Part shown: piece by piece, positions 27,403-43,443 of the stretch
Layout: each line of letters opens with the position of its first letter
How positions within the stretch are numbered: the stretch's first letter is position 1
Origin: a virus
Taxonomy: Duplodnaviria > Heunggongvirae > Uroviricota > Caudoviricetes
IMG/VR virus record: IMGVR_UViG_2703718823_000009
Direction: 5' to 3' (one strand)
DNA: 43,443 nt
Program-made: the position numbers and the translations under genes
The notes under the pieces: model-generated
The model's input: the letters and a program-made list of their open reading frames with translations, nothing else
What the model was told of the DNA's origin: nothing
The model's database searches: none

Positions 27403-27591
27403 ATGAAAACGTTATTACCAAACGTTAATACGTCTGAAGGTTGTTTTGAAATTGGTGTCACTATCAGTAACCCTGTATTTACTGAAGATGCCATTAACAA
27501 GAGAAAACAAGAACGGGAGCTATTAAATAAAATATGCATTGTTTCAATGCTGGCTCGTTTACGTCTGATGCCAAAAGGATGTGCACAATGA
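27403..27591 (+). CDS. dicB: cell division inhibitor DicB
   Basis: MKTLLPNVNTSEGCFEIGVTISNPVFTEDAINKRKQERELLNKICIVSMLARLRLMPKGCAQ (62 aa). Confidence 0.9.
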   Translation: MKTLLPNVNTSEGCFEIGVTISNPVFTEDAINKRKQERELLNKICIVSMLARLRLMPKGCAQ

Positions 27592-27779
27592 ATTCAGCAT
27601 TTGCGCTTGTTCTGACAGTTTTTCTTGTTTCCGGAGTGCCAGTTGATATTGCAGTCAGTGTTCACAGGACAATGCAGGAGTGTATGACTGCAGCAACCGA
27701 ACAGAAAATTCCCGGTAACTGTTACCCGGTCGATAAAGTTATTCACCAGGATAATATCGAAATCCCGGCAGGTCTTTAA
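27588..27779 (+). CDS. ydfD: YdfD (small lysis protein)
   Basis: MNSAFALVLTVFLVSGVPVDIAVSVHRTMQECMTAATEQKIPGNCYPVDKVIHQDNIEIPAGL; start overlaps dicB stop (ATGA). Confidence 0.85.
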   Translation: MNSAFALVLTVFLVSGVPVDIAVSVHRTMQECMTAATEQKIPGNCYPVDKVIHQDNIEIPAGL

Positions 27780-27872
27780 AACAGTTCCGTAATAAATATC
27801 CGGTTTCATTCTTATATGCCAGCAATGGCAGGGATTTGTTCATCCTTAAATCTGTCATGAGGTTAAAACAAA

Positions 27873-30344
27873 ATGAGTAAAGTCTTTATTTGCGCCGCTA
27901 TTCCTGACGAACTGGCAACAAGGGAAGAAGGCGCTGTGGCTGTAGCCACAGCCATTGAAGCTGGCGACGAACGCCGTGCTCGAGCAAAATTTCACTGGCA
28001 ATTCCTGGAACATTATCCGGCTGCTCAGGACTGCGCTTATAAATTTATTGTCTGCGAGGATAAACCTGGCATACCCCGCCCTGCCCTCGATTCATGGGAT
28101 GCTGAATATATGCAGGAAAACCGCTGGGATGAGGAGTCTGCTTCTTTTGTCCCGGTTGAGACTGAATCCGATCCGATGAACGTCACTTTTGACAAGCTGG
28201 CCCCTGAAGTACAGAACGCTGTCATGGTTAAGTTCGACACATGTGAAAACATCACCGTTGATATGGTTATTAGCGCACAGGAATTGTTGCAGGAAGACAT
28301 GGCAACATTCGACGGACATATCGTTGAAGCGTTGATGAAAATGCCAGAAGTTAACGCCATGTATCCGGAGCTTAAGTTGCACGCCATTGGGTGGGTTAAG
28401 CATAAATGTATTCCTGGTGCTAAATGGCCCGAAATTCAGGCAGAGATGCGCATCTGGAAAAAACGTCGCGAAGGTGAACGCAAGGAAACCGGAAAATACA
28501 CGTCTGTTGTTGATCTCGCCCGCGCCAGAGCCAATCAACAGTACACTGAAAATTCAACAGGAAAAATCAGCCCGGTCATTGCTGCCATTCATCGCGAATA
28601 CAAGCAGACATGGAAAACACTGGATGACGAACTGGCCTACGCTCTCTGGCCTGGTGATGTGGATGCCGGAAACATTGACGGCAGCATCCATCGCTGGGCA
28701 AAAAAAGAAGTTATCGACAACGACCGCGAAGACTGGAAGCGTATCTCGGCATCAATGCGCAAACAGCCTGATGCCCTTCGCTACGACCGCCAAACTATTT
28801 TTGGCCTTGTCCGTGAGCGTCCGATCGACATTCACAAAGATCCCGTAGCACTGAACAAATATATCTGCGAATACCTGACGACAAAGGGCGTGTTTGAGAA
28901 TGAAGAAACAGACCTGGGCACTGTTGATGTTCTCCAGTCATCAGAAACACAAACTGATGCAGTGGAAACTGAGGTATCTGATATCCCAAAAAATGAAACC
29001 GCGCCGGAAGCTGAACCATCTGTAGAGCGTGAGGGGCCGTTCTATTTCCTCTTCGCAGATAAGGACGGAGAAAAATACGGTCGCGCAAACAAACTTTCTG
29101 GTCTGGATAAGGCACTGGCTGCTGGCGCCACTGAAATCACAAAAGAAGAATATTTTGCCCGAAAAAATGGCACATACACGGGCTTACCGCAAAATGTAGA
29201 TACCGCTGAAGATTCAGAACAACCAGAGCCGATAAAAGTTACCGCTGACGAAGTAAACAAAATTATGCAGGCAGCCAATATCAGCCAGCCTGACGCCGAT
29301 AAGTTGCTTGCTGCATCACGTGGTGAATTTGTTGAAGGGATTAGTGACCCGAATGATCCGAAATGGGTTAAGGGGATCCAGACCCGCGATTCTGTGAACC
29401 AGAACCAGCATGAATCGGAACGGAACTACCAAAAAGCGGAACAAAACAGTCCAAATGCGTTACAAAACGAGCCAGAAACGAAACAGCCTGAACCAGTGGC
29501 GCAACAGGAAGTGGAAAAGGTCTGCACCGCCTGCGGTCAGACCGGCGGCGGCAACTGCCCTGATTGTGGCGCGGTGATGGGCGACGCAACATACCAAGAA
29601 ACATTCGATGAAGAGTATCAGGTTGAAGTTCAGGAAGATGATCCGGAGGAAATGGAAGGCGCTGAACATCCACACAAGGAGAACACTGGCGGCAATCAGC
29701 ATCACAATAGCGATAATGAAACTGGCGAGACGGCAGATCACCCAATTAAGGTGAACGGTCATCACGAAATCACATCCACCAGCAGGACGTGTGACCATCT
29801 AATGATCGACCTTGAAACCATGGGAAAAAATCCTGATGCCCCGATCATCTCAATAGGTGCAATATTTTTCGATCCGCAAACCGGAGATATGGGACCGGAA
29901 TTTAGTAAGACTATCGATCTGGAAACTGCTGGCGGAGTCATTGATCGGGACACCATTAAATGGTGGCTTAAGCAATCACGCGAAGCGCAATCTGCCATTA
30001 TGACCGATGAAATCCCGTTAGATGATGCACTGTTACAATTGCGGGAATTTATCGACGAAAACTCCGGTGAATTTTTTGTTCAGGTTTGGGGAAATGGAGC
30101 CAACTTCGACAACACGATTTTGCGCCGTTCATATGAACGGCAGGGGATCCCCTGCCCGTGGCGTTACTACAACGATCGCGATGTACGCACAATCGTTGAG
30201 CTGGGGAAAGCCATAGACTTCGATGCCAGAACGGCTATTCCATTCGAAGGTGAGCGCCATAATGCACTTGATGACGCCCGTTACCAGGCAAAATACGTTT
30301 CAGTTATCTGGCAAAAACTGATCCCGAGTCAGGCTGATTCTTAA
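27873..30344 (+). CDS. prophage exonuclease: YdfE-like N-terminal region fused to a DEDDh (DnaQ-like) 3'-5' exonuclease domain
   Basis: 823-aa uninterrupted ORF; C-terminus carries DLETMG, WGNGANFD and HNALDDARYQ motifs; ydfE position before xis-int. Confidence 0.7.
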   Translation: MSKVFICAAIPDELATREEGAVAVATAIEAGDERRARAKFHWQFLEHYPAAQDCAYKFIVCEDKPGIPRPALDSWDAEYMQENRWDEESASFVPVETESDPMNVTFDKLAPEVQNAVMVKFDTCENITVDMVISAQELLQEDMATFDGHIVEALMKMPEVNAMYPELKLHAIGWVKHKCIPGAKWPEIQAEMRIWKKRREGERKETGKYTSVVDLARARANQQYTENSTGKISPVIAAIHREYKQTWKTLDDELAYALWPGDVDAGNIDGSIHRWAKKEVIDNDREDWKRISASMRKQPDALRYDRQTIFGLVRERPIDIHKDPVALNKYICEYLTTKGVFENEETDLGTVDVLQSSETQTDAVETEVSDIPKNETAPEAEPSVEREGPFYFLFADKDGEKYGRANKLSGLDKALAAGATEITKEEYFARKNGTYTGLPQNVDTAEDSEQPEPIKVTADEVNKIMQAANISQPDADKLLAASRGEFVEGISDPNDPKWVKGIQTRDSVNQNQHESERNYQKAEQNSPNALQNEPETKQPEPVAQQEVEKVCTACGQTGGGNCPDCGAVMGDATYQETFDEEYQVEVQEDDPEEMEGAEHPHKENTGGNQHHNSDNETGETADHPIKVNGHHEITSTSRTCDHLMIDLETMGKNPDAPIISIGAIFFDPQTGDMGPEFSKTIDLETAGGVIDRDTIKWWLKQSREAQSAIMTDEIPLDDALLQLREFIDENSGEFFVQVWGNGANFDNTILRRSYERQGIPCPWRYYNDRDVRTIVELGKAIDFDARTAIPFEGERHNALDDARYQAKYVSVIWQKLIPSQADS

Positions 30345-30416
30345 TGTTCAACTGTCGCCGGTTGTGACTGGTATTCTGCAACCGGCGCTCGTCTGATGTA
30401 AGAGATAAAGAAATCG

Positions 30417-30668
30417 ATGAGCGAAGTAATCATGATTGTCTCTCCCGGCAAATGGGTATCCGAAGAGCAGTTAATTGCGCTGAAAGGAATAAAAAAAGGT
30501 ACGTTAAAAAAGGCTCGGGAAAAATCGTTTATGGAAGGAAGGGAATATAAGCATGTCGCTCATGACGGTATGCCATGGGATAACAGTCCATGCTTTTACA
30601 ACCTGGAAGAAATTGATCGCTGGATTGAGCGCCAAGCATCAGCGAGACCAAGATGTCATCTTACTTGA
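30417..30668 (+). CDS. excisionase-like protein
   Basis: 83-aa ORF immediately upstream of int; identity by position. Confidence 0.5.
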   Translation: MSEVIMIVSPGKWVSEEQLIALKGIKKGTLKKAREKSFMEGREYKHVAHDGMPWDNSPCFYNLEEIDRWIERQASARPRCHLT

Positions 30669-30702
30669 CTAAAAGCCACACTAACTAATGAGAGAAGTTG
30701 AA

Positions 30703-31983
30703 ATGAAATATCCGACAGGCGTGGAAAACCATGGAGGGAAATTACGTATCTGGTTTGTTTATAAAGGCGTAAGAGTCAGGGAAAATCTGGGGGTTCCTGA
30801 CACAGCAAAAAACAGGCGCGTTGCAGGTGAACTACGCTCCTCTGTTTGTTACGCAATAAAAACTGGTGTTTTCGACTATGCAAAACAGTTTCCCTCCTCA
30901 CGCAATCTGGAAAAATTTGGTGAGGCCCGACAAGATTTAACCATAAAAGAACTGGCTGAAAAATTTCTGGCACTGAAAGAAACTGAAGTCGCCAAAACAT
31001 CACTCAACACATACCGTGCCGTCATCAAAAATATCCTGAGCATAATCGGTGAAAAAAATCTTGCCTCATCGATTAATAAAGAAAAATTACTGGAGGTTCG
31101 TAAAGAGCTACTGACTGGATACCAGATCCCCAAAAGTAACTATATTGTTACACAACCAGGGAGATCGGCTGTAACTGTAAATAATTACATGACAAATCTT
31201 AACGCCGTGTTCCAGTTTGGTGTTGATAACGGTTACCTGGCAGATAATCCGTTTAAGGGGATCTCGCCATTAAAGGAATCAAGAACCATTCCGGATCCTC
31301 TTTCGCGGGAGGAATTTATCCGTCTTATCGATGCGTGCAGAAATCAGCAAGCAAAAAATTTATGGTGTGTTTCTGTTTATACTGGCGTTCGCCCTGGTGA
31401 GCTGTGTGCACTTGGATGGGAGGACATAGATCTGAAAAATGGAACAATGATGATCAGGAGAAATTTAGCAAAAGACCGTTTCACGGTACCAAAAACACAG
31501 GCGGGAACCAATCGGGCCATTCATCTTATTAAGCCAGCAATCGACGCTCTCCGGAGTCAGATGACATTAACGAGACTGAGCAAAGAGCATATCATTGATG
31601 TTCACCTCAGAGAGTATGGCAGAACAGAAAAACAAAAATGCACCTTTGTTTTTCAACCTGAAGTGTCAGCGAGAGTAAAAAATTATGGTGACCATTTTAC
31701 CGTTGACTCAATAAGGCAGATGTGGGACGCAGCGATAAAACGTGCCGGACTCCGCCATCGAAAATCATATCAGTCGAGACATACTTATGCCTGCTGGTCG
31801 CTGACAGCTGGTGCTAACCCGGCATTTATAGCAAACCAGATGGGCCATGCAGATGCGCAAATGGTATTTCAGGTATACGGAAAATGGATGTCTGAAAACA
31901 ATAATGCACAGGTAGCTTTGTTAAATACACAGTTAAGCGAGTTTGCCCCAACCATGCCCCATAACGAATCAATGAAAAATTAA
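30703..31983 (+). CDS. tyrosine integrase (IntQ-like, apparently intact)
   Basis: About 426-aa ORF with tyrosine-recombinase C-terminal region (...HRKSYQSRHTYACW...); last prophage gene before rspB; alternative ATG at 30688. Confidence 0.85.
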   Translation: MKYPTGVENHGGKLRIWFVYKGVRVRENLGVPDTAKNRRVAGELRSSVCYAIKTGVFDYAKQFPSSRNLEKFGEARQDLTIKELAEKFLALKETEVAKTSLNTYRAVIKNILSIIGEKNLASSINKEKLLEVRKELLTGYQIPKSNYIVTQPGRSAVTVNNYMTNLNAVFQFGVDNGYLADNPFKGISPLKESRTIPDPLSREEFIRLIDACRNQQAKNLWCVSVYTGVRPGELCALGWEDIDLKNGTMMIRRNLAKDRFTVPKTQAGTNRAIHLIKPAIDALRSQMTLTRLSKEHIIDVHLREYGRTEKQKCTFVFQPEVSARVKNYGDHFTVDSIRQMWDAAIKRAGLRHRKSYQSRHTYACWSLTAGANPAFIANQMGHADAQMVFQVYGKWMSENNNAQVALLNTQLSEFAPTMPHNESMKN

Positions 31984-32170
31984 TTTAATATTTATCAAAT
32001 AGTTAACACGCATGACTCTTGAAATCCATAAATTCAAGCGCAGTGCCCAGCCATCCCGATACTGCTGCTTTCACCAAATCCTTAGTGCTTCTTTCATGTT
32101 TTTCTATTGTCATAATGGTTATCTCTAAAAAAGAGGTAAGATGCGTACTACTTACTCGCCGTTATTGGTA

Positions 32171-33190
32171 TTATTCAGAAAAAGTGAGTAAGACTTTGCA
32201 GCAATGTTTTTGATCCTGTTCAAATAAACTAATGGCATCAGCAACATGCTGGAAATCAAACGTATGGGTAATTAATTTTTCTGGTTTAATTAACCCTTTA
32301 CTTAACCAGTCGATAACAACCGGAAATTTATTTGCATTTAAGCGTGAAGAGAAAATAGAGAGTTCTTTTCCGGTAATTCCTTGCTGAATCACTTCAGACG
32401 GTTCACTGGAGAAGCCCATCAATACAATACGTGCCGCTGGAGAAGCCAGCGTAACGGCCTCTTTCAGGATAGAAGGATGACAAGCCGCATCGATAATTAA
32501 TGTCGGCTTGATGCCTTTTTCAGCGAAAATCTCGCCAAGCGGTGTCTGGCTGTTATTAATCGCCCTGTCTGCCCCGCTCTCTTTCGCTTTTTCCAGTCGT
32601 TCATCAATGCGATCGGCAACAATCACATTTTTAACGTTATAGACGCCTTTTAATACCTGAACGATCGTCAGGCCGATTGGACCGGCACCATAAACCAGAA
32701 CGGTATCATTTTCAGTCGGTTGACCATGTCCGGTTACGTTAGCCGCAATGGTAAAAGGTTCGATCATCACCGCATATTGATCGGCCACTGCTTCAGGAAT
32801 TTTCCACGCATTTTTTGCCGGAACCACGGCATATTCACTGAAACCACCGTCAGCGTGCACACCTAATACAGCAAGTGTCGTACAAACGTTCGGTTTACCT
32901 ATAGAGCACGGATAGCAATGCCCACAGCTGACCACCGGATCGACAGCAACACGTTCACCGACTCTGGCGCTTTCCACGCCGTCACCCACCGCATCAATGA
33001 CGCCAAAGAATTCATGTCCAATGACGCGCGGATATTTCGCAAAAGGATTATGCCCACGATAAATATGGCTATCTGAACCACAAATTCCGGCAAGTTTCAC
33101 TTTTACTCGTACTTCACCCGCTGACGGGGTGGGTATTTCACGTTCGACAATCGCCAGTTGATTCGGTTTTTCAATTAATATGCTTTTCAT
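32171..33190 (-). CDS. rspB: starvation-sensing protein RspB (Zn-dependent dehydrogenase)
   Basis: 339 aa from MKSILIEKPNQ...; AAGGAG RBS; recalled E. coli RspB. Confidence 0.9.
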   Translation of the reverse strand: MKSILIEKPNQLAIVEREIPTPSAGEVRVKVKLAGICGSDSHIYRGHNPFAKYPRVIGHEFFGVIDAVGDGVESARVGERVAVDPVVSCGHCYPCSIGKPNVCTTLAVLGVHADGGFSEYAVVPAKNAWKIPEAVADQYAVMIEPFTIAANVTGHGQPTENDTVLVYGAGPIGLTIVQVLKGVYNVKNVIVADRIDERLEKAKESGADRAINNSQTPLGEIFAEKGIKPTLIIDAACHPSILKEAVTLASPAARIVLMGFSSEPSEVIQQGITGKELSIFSSRLNANKFPVVIDWLSKGLIKPEKLITHTFDFQHVADAISLFEQDQKHCCKVLLTFSE

Positions 33191-33201
33191 TATCTTACTC
33201 C

Positions 33202-34416
33202 TTACCAGTTCCACAGCGTGCCATCTTCCAGACGTGCGACTGGTAGATAAGCAGGTTCATAGGGATATTTCGCCGCCAGCTTTTCATCGAATTCGATGCC
33301 AAGACCCGGTTTGTCTCCCGGATGCATATAGCCGTTATCGAAAGTCCAGTTGTGCGGGAAGACTTCGAGCATTTGTTCGGAATAACCCATGTATTCCTGG
33401 ACACCGAAATTGGGGACCCACAGATCAAAGTGCAGCGCTGCAGCCATGCAGACTGGTGACAAATCGGAAGGACCGTGTGAGCCAGTACGTACCTGATACA
33501 GCGAAGCAAAATCGGCAATCCGGCGCATACCGGTAATTCCGCCTGCATGGGTCAGCGTGGTGCGGATATAATCGATGAGTTGCTCTTCAATCAGTTGTTT
33601 GCAGTCCCAGATGCTGTTGAAGACTTCACCCACTGCGATGGGTGTGACGGTATGTTGGCGAATGAGACGGAAGCATTCCTGGTTTTCTGCAAGCGTCGGG
33701 TCTTCCATCCAGAACATGCGATAATCTTCAATGCTTTTACCAAAGCGCGCCGCTTCAATAGGCGTTAAGCGATGGTGCATGTCATGCAGCAAATGTTCAT
33801 TAAAACCAAACTTGTTACGTACCGCGTCAAACAATTTCGGCATGAAATCGAGGTATTTCTCCGTCGACCACAACTGCTCTTCCGGCCACTGTCCTTTGGT
33901 TGCGGGTTCATAAGCCAGACCTTTACCTTTCGACATGCCGTAGGTGGTTTTCATACCAGGGATTCCGCACTGCACGCGGATGGCTTTGAATCCCAGCTCC
34001 TGATGACGGGCATAATCATCCAGAGCTTCATCAATACTGTGACCGGTGGTATGGCAATAAACCATCACCCCTTCACGAGACGCGCCGCCGAGTAACTGGT
34101 AAAGCGGCATGTTGGCAGCTTTGGCTTTAATATCCCACAGCGCCATATCAACCGCTGAAATGGCCGACATCGTAACCGGACCGCGACGCCAGTAAGCACC
34201 TTTATAGAAAAACTGCCAGATATCTTCGATACGGTGCGCATCGCGACCAATAAGCTGCGGACAAAGGTGATCCTGCAAATAAGAGGCCACGGAAAGCTCA
34301 CGTCCATTGAGGGTGGCATCCCCAAGGCCCGTAATACCGTCCTCAGTGGTGATTTTTAATGTGACGAAATTACGCCCCGGACAGGTAACAAAAACTTCAG
34401 CCTTTACGATCTTCAT
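33202..34416 (-). CDS. rspA: starvation-sensing protein RspA (enolase-superfamily dehydratase)
   Basis: 404 aa from [27 protein letters not shown]...; AAGGA RBS. Confidence 0.9.
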
Positions 34417-34621
34417 GTTCGATTCCTTGCATCGCTTGTCGTGATGCATGAAATCTACGCAACTGAGCTACTACCATACAAGTATAAAGATCGAAAAAAG
34501 CCGGAGTGATCACAAAAAAAGGCGTATATTAGCGCTGTGAATGGTTGACAAAAGATGAAATAGAATACCTTTTGTCAGCTGACACTTCCTCTTATCTTAT
34601 TGATAAAATGGATTTATGTTC

Positions 34622-34948
34622 CTACGTGCGCCCCCAGCCCGCAACAATGATCAACATGCCGCAAAGCGCAATCAACGCACCCGTCCAGTCATAAAGAGTC
34701 AGTTTCACGCCATCCACAACGCGCAGCCACATCAACGCCGTGCAGACATAAACGCCACCATAAGCCGCGTAAACACGCCCACTCGCCGCTGGATGCAACG
34801 TTAACAACCAGACAAACAGCGCCAGTGAAATCCCCGCCGGAAGCAACAGCCAGATACTGGCGTTTCGTTTTAACCACAACCAGGGCAGAAAGCATCCAAT
34901 AATTTCACACAGCGCAGTAGCAAAAAATAGTAACGTTGCTTTAATCAT
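34622..34948 (-). CDS. ynfA: UPF0060 inner membrane protein YnfA
   Basis: 108 aa from [27 protein letters not shown]... Confidence 0.85.
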
Positions 34949-35082
34949 CTTTGTCACTTATTGACATCATGTATAGTTATAGGGCGACATAATATCATCA
35001 ATATAAACACCCTCCTGGTACGTTTTGCGTTCGCAGTGGATGGTGTAGAATCTCCTTTAATCATTCATACAGGGAATGAATT

Positions 35083-35424
35083 ATGAAAATCACTCTCAGC
35101 AAACGAATCGGCCTGCTCGCTTTTCTGCTGCCTTGCGCACTGGCACTGAGCACAACTGTTCATGCCGAAACTAACAAACTGGTGATTGAGTCTGGCGACA
35201 GTGCACAAAGCCGCCAGCACGCCGCTATGGAAAAAGAGCAATGGAATGACACGCGCAATCTGCGTCAGAAAGTGAATAAACGCACTGAAAAAGAGTGGGA
35301 TAAAGCCGACGCCGCTTTTGATAACCGCGATAAATGTGAGCAAAGCGCCAACATCAATGCCTACTGGGAGCCAAATACTTTGCGCTGCCTGGACCGTCGA
35401 ACTGGCCGCGTTATTACCCCCTAA
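35083..35424 (+). CDS. ynfB: YnfB (secreted DUF1283 protein)
   Basis: [32 protein letters not shown]... (113 aa). Confidence 0.85.
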
Positions 35425-35458
35425 CCTGTTATTGATTTAAGGAATGTAAGGACACGTT

Positions 35459-36019
35459 ATGCCAAGCGCCCACAGTGTTAAGCTACGCCCGCTGGAGCGT
35501 GAAGATTTACGCTATGTACATCAACTCGACAATAACGCCAGTGTGATGCGTTACTGGTTTGAGGAACCCTACGAAGCCTTTGTTGAACTCTCTGATCTGT
35601 ATGATAAGCATATTCACGATCAGAGCGAACGACGCTTTGTGGTGGAATGTGACGGCGAAAAAGCCGGTCTGGTGGAGCTGGTGGAAATTAACCATGTACA
35701 TCGCCGGGCAGAATTTCAGATAATTATCTCCCCGGAGTATCAGGGGAAAGGTCTGGCAACCCGTGCCGCCAAATTAGCAATGGACTATGGCTTCACCGTT
35801 CTCAATCTCTATAAGCTGTATCTGATCGTCGATAAAGAGAATGAAAAAGCGATTCACATTTACCGCAAGCTTGGCTTTACGGTTGAAGGTGAATTGATGC
35901 ACGAGTTCTTTATTAATGGTCAATATCGTAATGCCATTCGCATGTGTATATTCCAGCATCAGTATCTGGCAGAGCACAAAACACCGGGTCAGACTCTCCT
36001 GAAGCCGACCGCACAATAG
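35459..36019 (+). CDS. speG: spermidine N1-acetyltransferase SpeG
   Basis: [44 protein letters not shown]... (186 aa). Confidence 0.95.
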
Positions 36020-36021
36020 CA

Positions 36022-36732
36022 TTAATAATAATCGATCGTATTTTTGATGGTGTAAACCCTTTCGACGGCGGGTTTTACTCCTTCATCAACAATGATCAGC
36101 TGACAGTCCACCGGATTGGCGTGACTGTCATATTCACAGCTCTGTTTTACATTACCAACTCGTTGATTATTCAGTAAAGTAACCGCTGTGTAATCTAATT
36201 TTTTGATCGGGTCCGTTGATGGCGTGGCGCTGACAGATAATGTTTTGTCGTTACTTTTCGTGGTTTTACCCAGTGGATAACCCTGATCATCATAGCGATA
36301 TTCCATCTGCATTTGTTTGCTGCTGGCTTTAATCACGAAGCCATTATCATCGGTTTCCCAACTCACCCCGGCAGAAGGTAATTCTGCTAGCTGGCATTTT
36401 CCCTGTAAACGTACTCTCTTCTCCAGCGTCTCGGCATCACGGTAATAATTGGCGTCCAGTACCAGAGCGACCACGGTATTATTTTCCAGATCCAGTAATT
36501 CGAGTGAATCAAAACAGCCTTCTTCCGACAAAGTCCCAGAAACACGTTTCGTCACTTCACCTTGCTCATCCATTAATGTCTGAGTGAAATCTTTTACCGG
36601 ACCACGCAGCGGATCAAAATCGAATTCATTAGAGAAACTGGCCATCTCAGGGGTAAATGAAAGTGTTACCTCTGTGCGGTCACATCCTGTGAGGAATATC
36701 GCGAGTAAGCATGGTAGTAATTTGTATTTCAC
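36022..36732 (-). CDS. ynfC: lipoprotein YnfC
   Basis: 236 aa from GTG (MKYKLLPCLLAIFLTGC..., lipobox LTGC). Confidence 0.8.
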   Translation of the reverse strand: MKYKLLPCLLAIFLTGCDRTEVTLSFTPEMASFSNEFDFDPLRGPVKDFTQTLMDEQGEVTKRVSGTLSEEGCFDSLELLDLENNTVVALVLDANYYRDAETLEKRVRLQGKCQLAELPSAGVSWETDDNGFVIKASSKQMQMEYRYDDQGYPLGKTTKSNDKTLSVSATPSTDPIKKLDYTAVTLLNNQRVGNVKQSCEYDSHANPVDCQLIIVDEGVKPAVERVYTIKNTIDYY

Positions 36733-36839
36733 AACAGTCACCAGAGAGTAGAGATGATTCTCAATCATAGTAGCAAATACAGTACTTTACACGTTAAATG
36801 CTATGCTTAAAGAAGTTATCTTCGCGTAAGGAGCTTATG

Positions 36840-37145
36840 ATGAAACTCTCAACCTGCTGTGCCGCGCTTCTGCTCGCCCTCGCCTCACCCGCGGTACTCG
36901 CCGCGCCGGGATCCTGTGAGCGCATACAGAGCGATATATCACAGCGCATTATCAATAATGGCGTACCCGAAAGCAGCTTCACGTTAAGTATTGTACCCAA
37001 TGACCAGGTTGATCAGCCTGATTCCCAGGTCGTCGGCCATTGCGCTAATGATACGCATAAAATTCTCTATACCCGCACCACCAGCGGTAACGTCTCTGCT
37101 CCCGCGCAGTCTACCCAGGATGGCGCGCCTGCCGAACCGCAGTAA
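36840..37145 (+). CDS. ynfD: YnfD (secreted DUF1161 protein)
   Basis: MKLSTCCAALLLALASPAVLAAPGSCERIQSD... (101 aa); TAAGGAG RBS. Confidence 0.8.
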   Translation: MKLSTCCAALLLALASPAVLAAPGSCERIQSDISQRIINNGVPESSFTLSIVPNDQVDQPDSQVVGHCANDTHKILYTRTTSGNVSAPAQSTQDGAPAEPQ

Positions 37146-37343
37146 TACATTATCGACTGAACGCCGGATACGACACATCCGGCGATTTGAACATACAACA
37201 TAATCCCACCTTATTACTCATACCCTTCTATTGATATGGATTAATAATTCTTAACCCAAAATGGGTAGACTCCCTCTATTGTTAGCGCGCTAAATATTCA
37301 ATATATAAACATTTATATAACGATAAAGAACAGGGAGTGAGTT

Positions 37344-38754
37344 ATGTCCAAAAATGACCGAATGGTGGGCATCAGCCGCAGAACACTCGTTAAATCAACC
37401 GCGATAGGTTCTCTGGCGCTGGCTGCAGGCGGTTTTTCTTTACCGTTCACCCTGCGCAGTGCAGCGGCAGCGGTACAACAGGCCAGCGAAAAAGTGATCT
37501 GGGGTGCCTGTTCCGTCAACTGTGGTAGCCGCTGTGCACTTCGTCTACATGTTAAAGATAATGAAGTCACCTGGGTGGAAACTGACAACACCGGCAGCGA
37601 CGAGTATGGCAATCATCAAGTACGCGCCTGTTTGCGTGGTCGATCCATCCGTCGGCGTATTAATCATCCCGATCGCTTGAATTACCCAATGAAACGCGTG
37701 GGCAAACGCGGCGAAGGCAAATTCGAACGGATTAGCTGGGATGAAGCCCTGGATACTATCGCCAGTAGCCTGAAGAAAACCGTCGAACAATATGGCAATG
37801 AGGCTGTATATATTCAGTACTCTTCGGGGATCGTTGGCGGCAATATGACCCGCTCTTCGCCATCAGCCTCGGCGGTCAAACGCCTGATGAACTGCTACGG
37901 CGGTTCACTCAATCAGTATGGCTCCTACAGCACCGCGCAAATTTCCTGTGCCATGCCCTACACCTACGGCAGTAATGATGGCAACAGCACCACGGATATT
38001 GAAAACAGCAAGCTGGTCGTGATGTTTGGTAACAACCCGGCAGAAACCCGCATGAGCGGCGGTGGCATCACTTATCTTCTTGAAAAAGCGCGCGAGAAAT
38101 CGAACGCCAAAATGATTGCTATCGATCCGCGATATACCGATACGGCTGCTGGTCGTGAAGATGAATGGCTCCCTATTCGCCCGGGCACCGATGCCGCGCT
38201 GGTTGCGGGTATTGCCTGGGTATTGATTAACGAAAATCTCGTTGATCAACCTTTTCTCGATAAATACTGCGTCGGCTATGACGAAAAAACCTTACCCGCA
38301 GATGCACCCAAAAATAGTCACTATAAAGCCTATATTCTTGGTGAAGGTGATGATAACACAGCGAAAACGCCGCAGTGGGCTTCGCAAATTACCGGTATCC
38401 CGGTAGACCGTATCATCAAACTGGCGCGTGAAATTGGCACAGCAAAACCCGCTTATATCTGCCAGGGCTGGGGGCCGCAACGCCAGGCAAACGGCGAACT
38501 GACTGCACGCGCTATTGCTATGTTACCTATTTTGACGGGCAATGTCGGCATCAGCGGCGGAAATAGTGGCGCGCGTGAATCGACCTATACCATTACCATA
38601 GAACGCCTGCCGGTGCTGGATAATCCGGTCAAAATGTCAATCTCCTGCTTCAGCTGGACAGATGCTATCGATCATGGTCCGCAAATGACGGCAATCCGCG
38701 ACGGCGTCCGCGGCAAAGATAAACTGGATGTGCCCATTAAGTTCATCTGGAACT
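37344..38754 (+). pseudogene. ynfE: ynfE (Tat-exported molybdoenzyme) truncated after about 470 codons by insertion of foreign DNA
   Basis: Twin-arginine signal MSKNDRMVGISRRTLVK and DmsA-like sequence through ...PIKFIWN; the frame then runs 15 unrelated codons into the insert to a stop at 38801; full-length YnfE is about 800 aa (recalled). Confidence 0.8.
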
Positions 38755-38810
38755 TCAAGGACTTGAAGCGGACCCTTAGTAGGTCTGAGGTCCTGCATTG
38801 AGTCAAGGAC

Positions 38811-38843
38811 TTTGTGTCAGGCTTTGTGTCAGCCTTGTGTCAT
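38811..38843. repeat. short tandem repeat TTTGTGTCAG(G/C)C x3 near the element terminus
   Basis: ACTTTGTGTCAGGC TTTGTGTCAGCC TTGTGTCATT read directly. Confidence 0.6.
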
Positions 38844-38995
38844 TAGACGGGATGTCTAGACGGCTGGTCAGGACCCCGGTGGCCTCGGTCTGGACTTGAG
38901 GCGGGGCTATGGGGGAGAAGTCTGCTGGCTTAATGTATTAGATGGTCATTCACATTTTTCTGTCAGAAACCATCGGTCCCACTGTGAGTCCAAAC

Positions 38996-39151
38996 CTAAG
39001 CCCCCAGAAGCCCACCCACAGCCTTAGACAGAGTGTCGAATACATTCACACCGAGTCGACCGGAGAGGACCATATAGAGACCCACAGAGAGGAGCACGAG
39101 TTTATAGACCAGAGTCAGGAGGGACCTTAGGTCTGCGGAAGTCATGGACAT
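38996..39151 (-). CDS. small hydrophobic protein (51 aa) with strong RBS
   Basis: GGAGG 4 nt before ATG; MSMTSADLRSLLTLVYKLVLLSVGLYMVLSGRLGVNVFDTLSKAVGGLLGA; below ORF-track cutoff. Confidence 0.3.
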   Translation of the reverse strand: MSMTSADLRSLLTLVYKLVLLSVGLYMVLSGRLGVNVFDTLSKAVGGLLGA

Positions 39152-39204
39152 AAAGCCTCCTTCGTCTATTGTACTACTGCACTAGATAACTAGTACAAAA
39201 CAAA

Positions 39205-39229
39205 GGTCCAGACCATTGGTCCAGACCAT
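39205..39229. repeat. tandem repeat GGTCCAGACCAT x2
   Basis: GGTCCAGACCATTGGTCCAGACCAT read directly. Confidence 0.6.
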
Positions 39230-39389
39230 AGTTATCATGATGATTGGAACGATTGAACGGTAGGCACTTTACGTCTCACCCACTGTTCAGCTTCAGCCAG
39301 TGACCAGCATAGCCGCTTATAGACTCTGCGTGTCATCCAGATTGTTGCTTGATATCGTCCACCCTCCACAGGCTGTATAGATGTCTTAA

Positions 39390-39629
39390 TCACAGTGACA
39401 GGCCACCACCTGAAGTCCTGCTGATATTCAGTCCAGACTTACCTCTGCTCATGGTCTTACCTCCCTCGGTCTCCTGACCTTGGGTATCGACTACAGCTTG
39501 CTGAGCGTCATCTGGAGGAGCTACAGGAGGAGCTACAGGAGGCGGGACCGAAGCCCCACCTTGAGTCCCACCACCACCTGTCAGGCCCTTGGCGATGGAC
39601 CTGAAGCCTTTACTAATGCTCTTACCCAT
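39390..39629 (-). CDS. Gly/Pro-rich small protein (79 aa), low complexity
   Basis: ORF with internal PPVAPPVAPP repeat from a 12-bp tandem DNA repeat; no clear RBS. Confidence 0.3.
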   Translation of the reverse strand: MGKSISKGFRSIAKGLTGGGGTQGGASVPPPVAPPVAPPDDAQQAVVDTQGQETEGGKTMSRGKSGLNISRTSGGGLSL

Positions 39630-39634
39630 TGGTC

Positions 39635-40621
39635 TTACGCTTCGGTCTTGGTGAACTTCAGGCGTTTGACTACAGGCAGGACGGCAGTAGCTGAGCCAGT
39701 GCCCATCTTGATGGTCGTAGCAGCTTCAGCGACAACGTACACTTTACCGAGGATTTCCAAGTCGTGGGACTGAGAGTCGCCATCACGTGAAAGGACGACC
39801 GTAATATTCTCGCCATCGTGACGGAAGCAACCGAAGCTCAGAGCCGTGAAGCGTTTAGCCAGCATGAATACACCCTTGTCTTCACCGTTGTAGTAGGCGA
39901 TGTCTGTTCCCAGCATATCGACGATAGCGTCTTCACCGGAGAAGCCTTGCTTAGCAGCCAGACGGGACAGTGCTTTCAGTTGGCTCTCATGAGCGATAAT
40001 ACCGTAGTTAGACACCTCAGAACCGAAAGAAGGCTCTGTGTTCTCATACAGAGCGTCCATGATAGCGTCTGCCTTAGCGGTCAGGCTACCAGTCAGGACA
40101 GGAAGCTCTACGGTCTTCAGCAGCTTAGAGGATTCCAGAACGTCGACCATGTGAGCGTTGATGGTACGGACCACATTCTCACAGATGTTCATAGCGTCCT
40201 GCTGAAGTGTGCCCTGAGTGAATCCGGTGGATGACTTGGCGTCCCAGAGAGTGGTCTGCTCAGAGATGAGAATAGCCTGCTCGATTGGTTCGACCACGAT
40301 TTCTTGTCCAGACGGAATGGTCACGACTTCAGGTCGCTTGCCACCACGGACAGGAACGACCACAGAGCGGTCAGCCAGAGTGTGGGCAATGATTGGGGTC
40401 GGTAAGCTGTTACGGGTCGGCAGGACTTCTACAGGGAACGGGATGTTCTCTTGAGCGTCCTTAAGTACACCGTTCAGCATAGCCTTAACCGTCTTAGCTA
40501 ACTGGAGGGCGTAGACCTGCGGGTCAGCGTTAGTCGGCAGACCTTCATTGACCTGAATGTTGTCGGTATCGGTGATGCGTACTGGCTCAATGCCAAACTG
40601 GAAAGCGTCTTTAATCGTCAT
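39635..40621 (-). CDS. hypothetical protein (328 aa), largest gene of the cassette
   Basis: ATG at 40621 with TAGGAGA RBS 9 nt upstream; no family recognised by eye. Confidence 0.55.
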   Translation of the reverse strand: MTIKDAFQFGIEPVRITDTDNIQVNEGLPTNADPQVYALQLAKTVKAMLNGVLKDAQENIPFPVEVLPTRNSLPTPIIAHTLADRSVVVPVRGGKRPEVVTIPSGQEIVVEPIEQAILISEQTTLWDAKSSTGFTQGTLQQDAMNICENVVRTINAHMVDVLESSKLLKTVELPVLTGSLTAKADAIMDALYENTEPSFGSEVSNYGIIAHESQLKALSRLAAKQGFSGEDAIVDMLGTDIAYYNGEDKGVFMLAKRFTALSFGCFRHDGENITVVLSRDGDSQSHDLEILGKVYVVAEAATTIKMGTGSATAVLPVVKRLKFTKTEA

Positions 40622-40705
40622 AATAATCAATCTCCTAAATTAGTTTAAATACTGTGAGTCCTCAAAACTGAGGAGTCCCTAACATCGGGTCAGGGACTGT
40701 GTGTC

Positions 40706-41197
40706 TTATAAGCTGTCCAGCCAGTTACCGCCTGACTCAAGGTCAGCGACAATAGCGGCACGGGAGCGACCAGCGGAATGGGTTGCACTGCGGAGGTTCT
40801 CACCATAGGTCCGGCGTTCAGCTTTGACTTGTTCGCGGCGCTGTAGCTCTTTCTGCCACTCTGCATCGGTCATGTTCTCTTCACGCATACGCTCTTTCTG
40901 AGATGCCAGCTCTTTAGCGATACGCTCAGCCTCAGCTCGTTTGTTAAGCTGGCGGCGACCATAGGCGGTCATCAGGTCATTACTGAAGAAGTTGCCAATA
41001 GCTACGCCAGCTTCAGCCAGAGCTTCCAGTAACTCCATTGCCTCGCGGCTGGTAGACGGCAGGCCTGACAGGTAGCCCGGAATGAGGGTCTTGATAGCGA
41101 GCGACAGCGGATAGGGCTGACCGTCCAGACTCACAGTGTTTTCATAAAGGTTGATGTCGGTGACTGACAGCTTCCAGTTGTTGTTGTTGAACATCAT
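40706..41197 (-). CDS. hypothetical protein (163 aa) with charged helical C-terminal half
   Basis: ATGATG start with AGAGGAG RBS; C-terminus ...AERIAKELASQKERMREENMTDAEWQKELQRREQVKAERR... Confidence 0.5.
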   Translation of the reverse strand: MMFNNNNWKLSVTDINLYENTVSLDGQPYPLSLAIKTLIPGYLSGLPSTSREAMELLEALAEAGVAIGNFFSNDLMTAYGRRQLNKRAEAERIAKELASQKERMREENMTDAEWQKELQRREQVKAERRTYGENLRSATHSAGRSRAAIVADLESGGNWLDSL

Positions 41198-41293
41198 AGG
41201 TAATTCTCCTCTTGAGAGTTGAGACTATCGGTATCGCAGACGCAGTAGCGCCTACGGGTCTCCCCGCATCGGTCATCTCAAAAGGTTTTAAAA

Positions 41294-41461
41294 TTAGGCA
41301 GACAGTTTCATAGCGACCAGTTGCGCTATCAGCTCGTCTCGGGATTGGTGCTGGCGGGTCTCATCTTCCGGGTCTAGACCAAGCTCTCTGAGGAGGACTT
41401 CAGTCCGGTAGCCACGGTAACGGAGAGTCATGCGGCCCTCAGGTGTGCGTGGGTCAATCAT
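41294..41461 (-). CDS. small translationally coupled ORF (55 aa)
   Basis: ATG 1 nt after the KilA-N gene stop, preceded by AAGGGAGG; MIDPRTPEGRMTLRYRGYRTEVLLRELGLDPEDETRQHQSRDELIAQLVAMKLSA. Confidence 0.3.
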   Translation of the reverse strand: MIDPRTPEGRMTLRYRGYRTEVLLRELGLDPEDETRQHQSRDELIAQLVAMKLSA

Positions 41462-41462
41462 C

Positions 41463-42221
41463 TTAGAGTCCTCCCTTAGCGCACAGACGAACCAGCTCGA
41501 CCTTGTTGGACTTAAGCCACTCGTAACCCTTGGTGAGGACCTTAAGCCCCTCCTGACCGTTATAGTGGTTATCCTGAAGACGGTAATAGCCGTTCTCCAG
41601 ACCCTTAGGATTGAAGCTGGTCATCCAGCCACCTGACGAGATGTCAAATACAGGCTGTCCTCGACCGTCCAGCTTGCGACTATAGAAGGGATTAGCTATA
41701 CGCCCTGACTTCAATACGGCATTAAGAGCCTTGGCTGATACCAGCTTTGTACCTAACCTGAAGTCGAGATTCTTAAGACACTCTGTCAGGGTGTGGCCCT
41801 GCTTCGGGTTATCCAGCTTTTCCAGCCAGTTACGGGCTATAGGCTTGAGACCCTTAAGTTCCTTGGAGTCCTGCGCCAGCGCCTTAGCTTCCGACACTTT
41901 GTCGTTACGTAAAGCGATGAAAGCACGGATGACCTTAAGGTAGAAATCAGGTGAGACCCACATCGCATAGGCAATAGCCGCCTCTTCAGTAGCCCATGTC
42001 CCCGGAGTCGAACCACCATGAGCAACATGCAAATTTGCATCTTGGTCAAGAAGCGTCCTGACGCTAGAACGCCACTGACCCGGCTCCTTAGCAGATGGAA
42101 GCTCAAGCTCTTTATGTAGCTCGTTCAGGTTCCACATACGGTCCTGATTACAGGCCCAGTGATAGCCGTCAACGATGACAGGAAGAACTACTTCATGCTT
42201 CATTAAGGGTTGAGTTGACAT
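41463..42221 (-). CDS. KilA-N domain protein (possible antirepressor/regulator)
   Basis: N-terminal ...GTWATEEAAIAYAMWVSPDFYLKVIRAF... matches the KilA-N signature as recalled; AAGGAG RBS 9 nt before ATG. Confidence 0.6.
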   Translation of the reverse strand: MSTQPLMKHEVVLPVIVDGYHWACNQDRMWNLNELHKELELPSAKEPGQWRSSVRTLLDQDANLHVAHGGSTPGTWATEEAAIAYAMWVSPDFYLKVIRAFIALRNDKVSEAKALAQDSKELKGLKPIARNWLEKLDNPKQGHTLTECLKNLDFRLGTKLVSAKALNAVLKSGRIANPFYSRKLDGRGQPVFDISSGGWMTSFNPKGLENGYYRLQDNHYNGQEGLKVLTKGYEWLKSNKVELVRLCAKGGL

Positions 42222-42568
42222 ATCGTTGTACTCCTTTTGTTATGCCTCCTGAAGTCACACCCTGAAAGCCTACTCAAGCCCCCAACGATAGGGAGACTCA
42301 CAGGCAACAGGAGACATACAGAAAGACTTGAGGTAATAAGGTCGTGTGAAGACCATGTTAACTTTTTCCTACTGGCTACTAGATAACTAGCGTGTCTCCA
42401 TATGTATAAAGGCGGGACCGCATGTCAGGACGAGCTGTAAGGACTTCCAGATGGTGAGCGGTGATAAACTTAAGCCAATGAGTAGTGAGTAGACGAGCTA
42501 CTAACAGATGACTGAAGAACGCTAACGAGCTGGAGGTCATACAGGAGGTCTGACAGAGGCGGAAGCAG

Positions 42569-42591
42569 GTCTCCTATAGTGATAGTTTAGG
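42569..42591 (-). promoter_or_regulatory. phage single-subunit RNAP promoter-like motif P2
   Basis: Minus strand CCTAAACTATCACTATA|GGAGAC (-17 to +6); compare SP6 ATTTAGGTGACACTATAGAAG and T7 TAATACGACTCACTATAGGGAGA. Confidence 0.5.
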
Positions 42592-42596
42592 GTCTG

Positions 42597-42619
42597 GTCC
42601 CCTATAGTGAGTGCTTATT
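42597..42619 (-). promoter_or_regulatory. phage single-subunit RNAP promoter-like motif P1
   Basis: Minus strand AATAAGCACTCACTATA|GGGGAC; positions -10 to +3 identical to T7 consensus (ACTCACTATAGGG), -11/-12 differ. Confidence 0.5.
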
Positions 42620-43082
42620 CCATCATCCCTTTATCACAGAGCACCTTCTTCATGTTCACAGAGGTAGCCTGAAGTACAGAGTTAACGTGGCGTAGGTAGC
42701 GAGGAGACGGGGAGCGACCCGTGATTGCCGTGTAGGAGATGTCAGTATTGCGGGAGAAGATATCGTTGGTGCCATATAAGGCAGCGAACAGGTAGGCCTT
42801 GGAGACCGGGAGTCCCACGCTGTTAGAGAGACCTGAAGGACGTGAGAGTCCTGTAAACACATCGTCTGCCCATGGGTAGGCCTCAGCAAGCTGCGTATAG
42901 GAGAGACACCCAGTCTCAATCAGCCACAGCCTCACAGACCGATTGTCGATGACCACAGGCGGCTTACCTGTACGGGCCTTAGGTTCATCATAGGTCGGCG
43001 CTGGTAGCTGCTCATGGTCGAGGTCTCCACCGAAGAAGGCCTCATTGTCGGACTCTGAGTAGCATTGAATTGTAATAGCCAT
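42615..43082 (-). CDS. hypothetical protein (155 aa), first gene of the minus-strand cassette
   Basis: ATG at 43082 with AGAGGAGG RBS 7 nt upstream; P3 motif 80 nt upstream. Confidence 0.5.
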   Translation of the reverse strand: MAITIQCYSESDNEAFFGGDLDHEQLPAPTYDEPKARTGKPPVVIDNRSVRLWLIETGCLSYTQLAEAYPWADDVFTGLSRPSGLSNSVGLPVSKAYLFAALYGTNDIFSRNTDISYTAITGRSPSPRYLRHVNSVLQATSVNMKKVLCDKGMME

Positions 43083-43156
43083 GGATGGGCCTCCTCTTAA
43101 GGTTGGCTACTTGCAGTGGGTAGCAGCGGTTTCGGTTAGATGGAGGACAGGCGTGT

Positions 43157-43179
43157 CTCTCCTAGGGTGATAGTTAAGG
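43157..43179 (-). promoter_or_regulatory. phage single-subunit RNAP promoter-like motif P3
   Basis: Minus strand CCTTAACTATCACCCTA|GGAGAG; shares an extended 28-bp match with P2. Confidence 0.4.
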
Positions 43180-43237
43180 GTCTGAGCCCAAACTTCCGAA
43201 GGTGAGGGATTATTGTAAGATACTGAAAGCTAATGGA

Positions 43238-43324
43238 AAGTTGGAGGGACCTGAGTTTAGGACGCAGTTTAAATAAGACACCAAGTTGGAGGACCTGAGT
43301 TTAGGGTGCAGTTTAAATAAGACC
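43238..43324. repeat. tandem direct repeat, 2 units of about 44 bp (iteron-like)
   Basis: AAGTTGGAGGGACCTGAGTTTAGGACGCAGTTTAAATAAGACACC followed by AAGTTGGAGGACCTGAGTTTAGGGTGCAGTTTAAATAAGACCAC. Confidence 0.7.
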
Positions 43325-43386
43325 ACAGACAGACTTAGAGTCGGACAGCCGAAGGCGAACCAGTGGGCCTATAGTCAGGAGGGATT

Positions 43387-43443
43387 ATGATTATTATCAC
43401 CCTCCATAACTTCAGTCGTAAGCGACTCGTCAGAACCGTATTG
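43387..43443 (+). CDS. start of a divergent plus-strand gene (partial)
   Basis: AGGAGGG RBS 3-4 nt before ATG at 43387; MIIITLHNFSRKRLVRTV... open to window end. Confidence 0.3.
   Translation, partial: MIIITLHNFSRKRLVRTVL

Follow-up and report, generated by a model that had tools for sequence, protein, structure and literature searches.

The window analysed here, that is, the whole 43,443-nucleotide stretch of IMG/VR virus record IMGVR_UViG_2703718823_000009, is a piece of Escherichia coli chromosome in which a lambdoid prophage at the Qin site is followed by rspB, rspA, ynfA, ynfB, speG, ynfC, ynfD and ynfE. Within the last of these genes the chromosome gives way to an integrative element, whose left 4.7 kb occupies the rest of the window (38755-43443; all genes on the minus strand), and whose integrase gene and right attachment site (attR) lie beyond it. 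The element interrupts ynfE, the gene for a molybdoenzyme, and is considered here as a candidate satellite of virulent T7-like phages.

An earlier note on this DNA had read ynfE as normal up to ...PIKFIWN and then continuing through 15 codons of the insert to a stop at 38801, and both the open reading frame (ORF) list and BLASTN agree with that reading. The match to the ynf region of K-12 MG1655 (window 30824-38754, 98.95%) ends exactly at 38754, which is nucleotide 1411 of the 2427 of ynfE. The 5' part of the gene (37344-38754, plus strand; codons 1-470 plus one base) specifies the Tat signal, the Fe4S4 domain and two thirds of the Molybdopterin domain. The resulting chimeric, truncated ORF (37344-38801, plus strand) has its last 15 codons from the insert, ends in ...PIKFIWN FKDLKRTLSRSEVLH followed by the stop, and encodes 485 aa, against the 808 aa of K-12 YnfE; the note had estimated about 485 instead of about 800. 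The window product is identical to K-12 YnfE at 461 of the first 470 residues.

According to Pfam, the Molybdopterin domain of K-12 YnfE spans residues 111-566 and the Molydop_binding domain residues 687-800. The former is cut at residue 470, with no restoration by sequence of the element, and the latter is lost from the truncated product, which keeps no more than the Fe4S4 domain plus about two thirds of the Molybdopterin profile and gains 15 unrelated residues. In the selenate reductase encoded by ynfEFGH-dmsD, YnfE is described as the principal catalytic subunit and YnfF as contributing little (PMC5203670). Because it lacks the entire molybdopterin-dinucleotide-binding domain as well as the C-terminal third of the Molybdopterin domain, the 485-aa product should be inactive, and the cell should thereby lose the main catalytic subunit of its selenate reductase. 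The downstream genes ynfFGH-dmsD are probably affected by polarity. The claim that the insertion inactivates ynfE is thus borne out by the alignment break at 38754 together with the loss of domains.

Since the window stops at 43443, about 1.9 kb short of the right end of the element, other genomes with the same junction were used to complete the picture. A 1-kb junction probe was found at >=80% coverage (at least that share of the probe) in 117 of 5426 complete E. coli genomes, so the split of ynfE is not a product of chance or of assembly. A 315-bp probe across the empty site gave an unbroken match in 5113 of 5285 genomes, and in 159 (~3%) the match fell into two separate places. The genome of UMNK88 is 98.99% identical to window 30755-42367, and the insert measures 6.4-6.6 kb in UMNK88, 47-1826, F1267 and ETEC1732 (the full copies, of which L001 is that of 47-1826 and L004 that of UMNK88, the others being L005 and L006).

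The left attachment site (attL) contains a core of 15 bp, AGTTCATCTGGAACT (38740-38754), which corresponds to ynfE nucleotides 1397-1411, codons 466-471, and exists as a single copy in K-12. Copies of this core lie 6586 bp apart in UMNK88, where the attR copy has one mismatch, and 6611 bp apart in 47-1826; all four full copies have the core at both ends and a Phage_integrase-family gene beside attR, while the window holds attL only. Inside the element lie 2.9 repeats of CTTTGTGTCAG (38810-38842; repeat families D4 and D13). The same 20-mer recurs near attR in the full copies, which suggests that the repeats are probably arm-type sites of the integrase. The paralogue ynfF was considered as an alternative target and rejected, being mismatched at 5 of the 15 core positions.

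In the full-copy genomes, the 3' part of ynfE follows directly after the element, and then come ynfF, ynfG, ynfH and dmsD. Excision in silico gives an 808-aa ORF, identical to K-12 at 803-807 of 808 residues, in three of the four genomes in which both junctions were examined. In the fourth (strain 47-1826, L001), a second prophage lies within the 3' half of ynfE; this prophage (27440-41000 of that record) has sheath, tape-measure and baseplate genes, of the contractile-tail kind, and begins ~390 bp beyond the satellite-like element. Thus, the reference alignment ends where the note had placed the break, a duplicated 15-bp core is present, and the 3' part of the gene, which the window ends too early to include, is complete in related genomes; no genome with the junction was found in which ynfE runs past 38754, or in which the second core or the 3' half is lacking. 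The element is a tyrosine-integrase element of ~6.6 kb that is site-specific for codons 466-471 of ynfE and splits the gene without restoring it. The insertion, its integration by a tyrosine recombinase at the 15-bp core and the functional loss of YnfE are as good as shown.

Along the direction of transcription, the element encodes an integrase, a cargo protein, a KilA-N protein, proteins of 55, 163, 331 and 79 aa, and two ORFs of ~50 aa. The integrase, seen in the full copies, has 540 aa, belongs to the Phage_integrase family (Pfam, PHROG) and adjoins attR. Scans of the element's ORFs with Pfam, PHROG and NCBIfam recognized no gene for a portal, terminase, tail, protease, polymerase, primase or Rep protein, and an Rfam search gave no match.

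The 331-aa protein (39635-40630, minus strand; 328-331 aa) has no match in Pfam, PHROG or PDB sequences and no tblastn match in 50,697 phage records, and its close homologues are confined to Enterobacterales. Its identity comes from structure prediction. An AlphaFold model built with 12 close homologues reached a pLDDT of 48, and one built with distant homologues from an exhaustive hidden Markov model search reached 84.8. With this model, Foldseek returned 188 PDB and 185 viral matches at E<=1e-3, including HK97-fold capsids and encapsulins at probability 1.0; the best 50 of the 188 PDB matches and the best 50 of the 185 viral matches are all a phage capsid, an encapsulin or an unnamed viral protein. 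On the strength of the predicted fold, the 331-aa protein is an HK97-fold (major) capsid protein.

The 79-aa protein (39390-39629, minus strand) is a homologue of gp7.3, a small virion protein of the T7 group that is required for infectivity; it matches K1F gp7.3 at 39% over 84 aa (E 1e-11), phrog_1320 at 1.8e-11 and, weakly, PF11653. An assignment to gp6.7 was rejected after direct comparison, which gave gp7.3. It is the only protein of the element with a K1F homologue, and the remaining K1F proteins are unmatched. On the other side of the capsid gene, beyond a hairpin (40674-40698, minus strand), lies the gene of the 163-aa protein (40706-41197, minus strand), a putative scaffolding protein whose C-terminal half is charged and rich in Glu, Arg, Lys and Ala. 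A protein of this type is encoded just upstream of the capsid gene in L010-L012, L018, L019, L021 and L022, all relatives of the element. It is DUF6971-like, the DUF6971 match being weak or faint for the L019 and L021 proteins, and has no strong family match.

The remaining genes are small or variable. A hydrophobic protein of 51 aa (38996-39151, minus strand), unassigned in function and without a family match, is followed in the upstream direction by a terminator-like 10-bp hairpin with a T-run (39205-39227, minus strand), which stands after the capsid, gp7.3 and 52-aa genes. The 52-aa protein (39235-39393, minus strand) and the 55-aa protein (41294-41461, minus strand) come from the ORF list and were scanned with Pfam and PHROG. 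The KilA-N protein of 252 aa (41463-42221, minus strand; PF04383 at 1.3e-9, phrog_129) is a putative DNA-binding regulator with a counterpart in the distant relative L012. The cargo gene (42615-43082, minus strand; 155 aa) occupies a variable slot between the integrase gene and tandem promoters: window 42563-43282 is absent from L001, and L001, L006, L019 and L027 have different genes there. The slot lies at 24504-24872 in L001, 8878-9378 in L006, 1765-2418 in L019 and 6755-7414 in L027; its contents are the 155-aa protein in the window and otherwise a 122-aa, a 166-aa or a DUF4145 protein, and it resembles a cargo hotspot flanked by phage-type promoters. The 155-aa cargo gene has no Pfam, PHROG or PADLOC match, and no slot gene fits any PADLOC defence model.

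The signals that surround these genes are those of the T7 group. K1F has nine promoters of its own, with the consensus C(C/T)TAAACTATCACTATAGG(G/A), from which a promoter weight matrix (PWM) was built; K1F's own sites score 34-40 bits. Across the 43-kb window no more than three sites have a score of >=12 bits (at least 12), all of them inside the element and on its gene strand, and the PWM maximum in shuffled windows was 17.3 bits. The first, CCCTAAACTATCACTATAGGAGACCT (42567-42592, minus strand), is a K1F-type promoter with 32.3 bits and a predicted +1 at ~42574; in most related copies, the equivalent site reaches 37.2 bits and agrees with K1F phi10 at 24 of 24 nucleotides. The second, GAATAAGCACTCACTATAGGGGACCA (42595-42620, minus strand; repeat family D2), is T7-group promoter-like with a different specificity region at -12 to -8 and a predicted +1 at ~42602. 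The third, CCCTTAACTATCACCCTAGGAGAGAC (43155-43180, minus strand; also family D2), is a weaker K1F-like site of 17.8 bits upstream of the cargo gene. The three sites are kept in L001, L004-L007 and L019, while a K-12 control region has no PWM match. Sigma-70-like promoters, by comparison, occur in the element at chance level, which suggests that it is largely silent in the lysogen. K1F-type promoter sequences are present in 298 of the 5426 complete E. coli genomes, Shiga-toxin strains included; in a listed sample of 40, the matches are all in unannotated DNA.

Between the integrase and cargo genes lies a hairpin, GGAGGG-TGATAATAATCATAAT-CCCTCC (43378-43405, minus strand), that is homologous to the hairpin of T7-like phages downstream of phiOR. 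Its UMNK88 version matches ~190 Kayfunavirus-like genomes at 100% over 28-29 nucleotides, at a site near the right end. In K1F the loop is the same and the stem reads GGAGGT...ACCTCC, a compensatory change, and T7 has an analogous hairpin ~100 nucleotides downstream of phiOR. Also between the integrase and cargo genes, the window contains a 44-bp tandem unit (43238-43323; 1.9 copies, 92% match). This unit, present once in UMNK88, includes CCTAAACTCAGGTCC, a sequence similar to the upstream half of a K1F-type promoter.

The left end of the element mimics a phage genome end. On the minus strand, a K1F-like terminal-repeat mimic, CTCCCCCATAGCCCCGCCTCAAGTCCAGACCGAGGCC (38881-38990), corresponds to the sequence just before the K1F repeat plus the first ~60 nucleotides of the repeat, and within it lies a predicted end, TCTAATACATTAAG, starting at 38942 (minus strand). 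Its local alignment score is 39, compared with 20 +/- 2.2 (maximum 28-30) for shuffled sequence. When the joined attachment site (attP) was reconstructed from UMNK88 and its gene strand aligned with the K1F concatemer junction, two collinear matches were found, one on each side of attP, the second being the end of the repeat plus TATCTGTATCAG. Each match scores 39, against 20.4 +/- 2.4 (maximum 30) for shuffles, with z ~8. Between the two junction matches lie the start codon of the integrase gene, the att core and the GACACAA(A/G)G repeats. BLASTN of the end region of the element also matched the terminal regions of K1F-like phages, at E 8e-4. One record that matched this end region, PQ520054 (7.8 kb, 'Enterococcus phage'), was considered as a packaged satellite and rejected as a mislabelled fragment across the ends of a K1F-like phage. 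The record (L026; PQ520054.1, 7785 bp) was deposited as 'UNVERIFIED: Enterococcus phage IME_EF3, partial genome', and encodes an RNA polymerase with 93.5% identity to the K1F enzyme.

Taken together, these features are probably best read as those of a minimalist satellite whose helpers would be virulent T7-like phages of the K1F (Kayfunavirus) type, a reading that we favour from sequence comparison. The element has no genes for autonomous virion production or replication, and its promoters, its phiOR-downstream hairpin and its terminal-repeat and concatemer-junction mimic match those of a helper by sequence similarity only. In the proposed cycle, the element would stay largely silent in the lysogen; upon infection, the RNA polymerase of the helper would transcribe its genes, and the promoter with the AT-rich hairpin would act as a T7-type origin from which the helper replisome copies the element. 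The helper terminase would then cut and package it at the terminal-repeat mimic, and the satellite's capsid and scaffold proteins may form a small head on the portal, core and tail of the helper. After injection, the ends would recombine to attP, and the integrase would insert the element at the conserved ynfE motif of the new host. The packaged form is predicted to be linear, ~6.9 kb, with direct terminal repeats of ~320 bp, starting near TCTAATACATTAAG and ending after ...CTATCTGTATCAG. As for the head, six lengths of 6586 bp make 39,516 bp, a numerical coincidence within 0.5% of the K1F genome (39,704 bp), and packaging of a hexamer in full-size heads is therefore an alternative to small capsids.

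Several observations weigh against the satellite reading. By sequence, the capsid protein is not similar to gp10 of the T7 group, and T7-like capsids are not its nearest matches in Foldseek. The phage-type promoters stand downstream of the integrase gene, with no more than ~60 nucleotides between that gene and attR, so the helper polymerase would not transcribe it while the element is integrated; the trigger of excision is unexplained, and no excisionase was recognized. Insertion sequences (IS) have entered several copies, some of which are therefore decaying. The IMG/VR matches to the element all carry contig identifiers of the isolate-genome style and none of the virome type, and no sequence of the element derived from particles was encountered. 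Contigs of ~6.4-7.3 kb with the capsid gene, considered as free or circular forms, were rejected as chromosomal pieces with short flanks or ynf genes. Finally, the putative roles of the cis elements in origin function and packaging, and of the 163-aa protein as a scaffold, are drawn by analogy with T7.

The same promoters and cargo slot also invite a different explanation, namely an anti-phage defence island whose promoters sense T7-like infection, whose capsid-like decoy, gp7.3 mimic and cargo poison helper assembly and whose terminal-repeat mimic titrates the terminase, any transfer being incidental. It would account for the promoters specific to phage polymerase that drive all genes except the integrase, for the variable slot flanked by phage-type promoters and for homologues of structural proteins that could be dominant negatives. 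However, PADLOC matched no model except, weakly, KilA-N, and an integrase and att site within a mimic of a packaging signal fit a transmissible element and not a static defence locus. We consider a defence island unlikely; the idea also shares ground with the satellite model, because interference with the helper is usual among satellites.

Related elements bear on the remaining explanations. Those at the ynfE break have capsid proteins that are 94%, 70% and 42% identical, which indicates several independent integrations at one position. In another species, a further such element occupies the homologous motif within a related gene, and an element with a 92%-identical capsid protein adjoins a tRNA gene. 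Upstream of a dps-like gene lies a relative of 6.5 kb with a 33%-identical capsid protein; it encodes an integrase, KilA-N, a 155-aa protein and the capsid, and has T7-group-like promoters of its own (TAAACCCCGACTATAGAGAG), a similar hairpin and a CCCCCCATAGCCC box. The relative with a 42%-identical capsid protein has promoters of other specificities, one of which is present twice in a 39.6-kb IMG/VR contig; the promoter type of L012 has no exact match in IMG/VR. A still more distant relative (28%) encodes a T7 gp0.4-like protein, as well as, upstream of the capsid gene, a DUF6971 protein. The lengths of intact elements fall mostly within 6.4-6.6 kb (L004 7986-14571; L001, L005, L006, L012 and L018).

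The K1F-type promoter matches include a second locus with the same kind of element, near 1 Mb, in L027 (5155-13664; Shiga-toxin-producing E. coli (STEC) strain 6817) and in ~140 other genomes with two places. The locus encodes a 535-aa integrase, a DUF4145 protein, a Rha regulator that replaces KilA-N, a 169-aa protein and a 329-aa capsid-like protein, and has a K1F-type promoter and an IS66; it adjoins a gene with the annotation major capsid protein and what is left of other integrases. In another genome (L010 1483-4163; CP142904.1), the element with the 42%-identical capsid protein has an IS66 insertion, and its integrase lies only ~1.3 kb from ynfG, so a deletion seems to have removed most of ynfF together with the 3' part of ynfE.

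It might be argued that such elements are decayed left-overs of a temperate T7-like prophage, with no life of their own. T7-group cis elements and a gp7.3 homologue beside so few genes would fit a cryptic remnant, as would the IS elements in some copies. But the compact architecture (integrase, KilA-N, a protein of ~160 aa and capsid, in 6.4-6.6 kb) is kept at 33-42% capsid identity and at different sites, and this conservation across deep divergence makes a decayed prophage unlikely. Moreover, the window and several other genomes have every ORF intact, the att core inside the terminal-repeat mimic is an organized arrangement and not a product of random deletion, and the capsid protein is not a T7-group gp10. 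Accordingly, we think a remnant distinctly unlikely.

The disruption of ynfE itself has been noticed before. In the TIGER study (Mageeney et al., Nucleic Acids Research 2020, PMC7192596), ynfE is one of 19 candidates for 'regulated gene integrity', and the islands Eco892.7.ynfE and Sfl13.8.ynfE, of 7-8 kb in E. coli and Shigella flexneri, disrupt the Molybdopterin domain. Since that catalogue lists ynfE islands, the disruption was already known, and the islands almost certainly belong to the same element family. In the parts of the paper that were searched, ynfE is named in the abstract only, and the main-text passages do not mention the content or type of the islands or a phage link. The earlier note had called insertion into a coding sequence unusual for a phage-like element. 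It is indeed minority behaviour when the gene is not restored, but it is well known and, for ynfE, catalogued; likewise, the element does integrate but is not a prophage, being a 6.6-kb element without most phage genes.

In line with TIGER's general proposal, the host itself could turn ynfE off and on by reversible excision, that is, by regulated gene integrity or active lysogeny. This would explain disruption without restoration at a fixed position by several independent, divergent elements, and both halves of the gene are intact and give back the ORF on in silico excision. The likeness to active-lysogeny prophages (comK in Listeria, Stx prophages in mlrA) lies in a split host coding sequence that can be restored by precise excision; however, those prophages are complete and their reversible excision in cells is documented, whereas nothing indicates excision of the ynfE element independently of a phage. 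The signals of the element point to activation by a lytic T7-like phage, which is lethal, so that restoration of ynfE would be physiologically useless. In addition, the close relative beside a tRNA gene and the one upstream of a dps-like gene show the family to be independent of ynfE, and a conserved motif in a dispensable gene could equally well be a safe landing site. With signals that respond to lethal infection and relatives at other sites, a switch that serves the host is very unlikely.

At the far end of the window, the lambdoid prophage at the Qin site (1-32000) is largely intact, with long minus-strand ORFs, and adjoins rspB. A 431-aa ORF (30688-31983) lies on its rspB side, where K-12 carries intQ, and at the position of the K-12 IS2 in ydfE the window instead has ~2.2 kb of uninterrupted sequence.

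Compared with known satellites, the ynfE element most resembles different systems in different respects. Like PICMI (phage-inducible chromosomal minimalist islands) of Vibrionaceae, it is ~6 kb, with an integrase, minimal genes and, as proposed, a virulent helper; PICMI has AlpA and a primase but no capsid gene, resides next to fis and is packaged headful as ~8-mer concatemers in full-size heads (PMC10803314). The ynfE element, unlike PICMI, has no alpA, primase or replication gene, and has a capsid, a gp7.3 homologue and T7-type promoters and end signals. Like capsid-forming phage-inducible chromosomal islands (cf-PICIs), it has its own HK97-fold capsid protein instead of a remodelled helper capsid. 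The cf-PICIs are ~10-15 kb, also encode portal, protease, head-tail connectors and small terminase, and take only tails from temperate helpers. In the ynfE element, by contrast, only the capsid and the putative scaffold are present, and Pfam, PHROG and NCBIfam show none of the AlpA or master repressor, pri-rep, small terminase, portal, protease and connectors of PICIs and cf-PICIs.

P4, also of E. coli, and PLE, which depends on a virulent phage, are integrative satellites associated with small capsids. Both use the helper's capsid protein with a size-redirecting protein of the satellite, and have their own replication initiators. No marker families of either (for P4, alpha primase, sid, psu, delta, epsilon and alpA) occur in the ynfE element. 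Marine VEIMEs differ in having no capsid genes, and a T7-like (Autographiviridae) prophage would have phage RNA and DNA polymerase, portal, gp10-type capsid, tail and terminase genes, none of which is in the element. Chung and Hinkle are said to have found in 1990 that T7 packages DNA that carries a T7 origin (promoter plus AT-rich region) and a concatemer junction. The element has look-alikes of both, as do the substrates of T7 plasmid transduction; those substrates are laboratory constructs, whereas the element is natural, chromosomal and integrase-bearing, with its own capsid gene.

The literature that was searched contained no description of a satellite of T7-like coliphages, nor of this insert. 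While the disruption of ynfE is known, the element appears to be a previously undescribed variation on the phage satellite. That it represents a new family, of capsid-encoding satellites of virulent T7-like coliphages that are expressed by the helper polymerase, carry origin and terminal-repeat mimics, form their own small heads and reside in ~3% of E. coli ynfE genes, is a wider proposal that we regard as evenly balanced.

On its own, the disruption of ynfE is a catalogued curiosity, and carriers are probably without most of their selenate-reductase activity. If the satellite reading is true, the element would reveal a new strategy, acting purely in cis, by which a satellite senses and exploits a virulent phage, with no need for a dialogue between repressor and antirepressor. 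It would also be a very small satellite with its own capsid protein, in the highly tractable system of E. coli and the T7 group. Given how many E. coli genomes contain K1F-type promoters, such elements could affect phage therapy with Kayfunavirus and related podophages.

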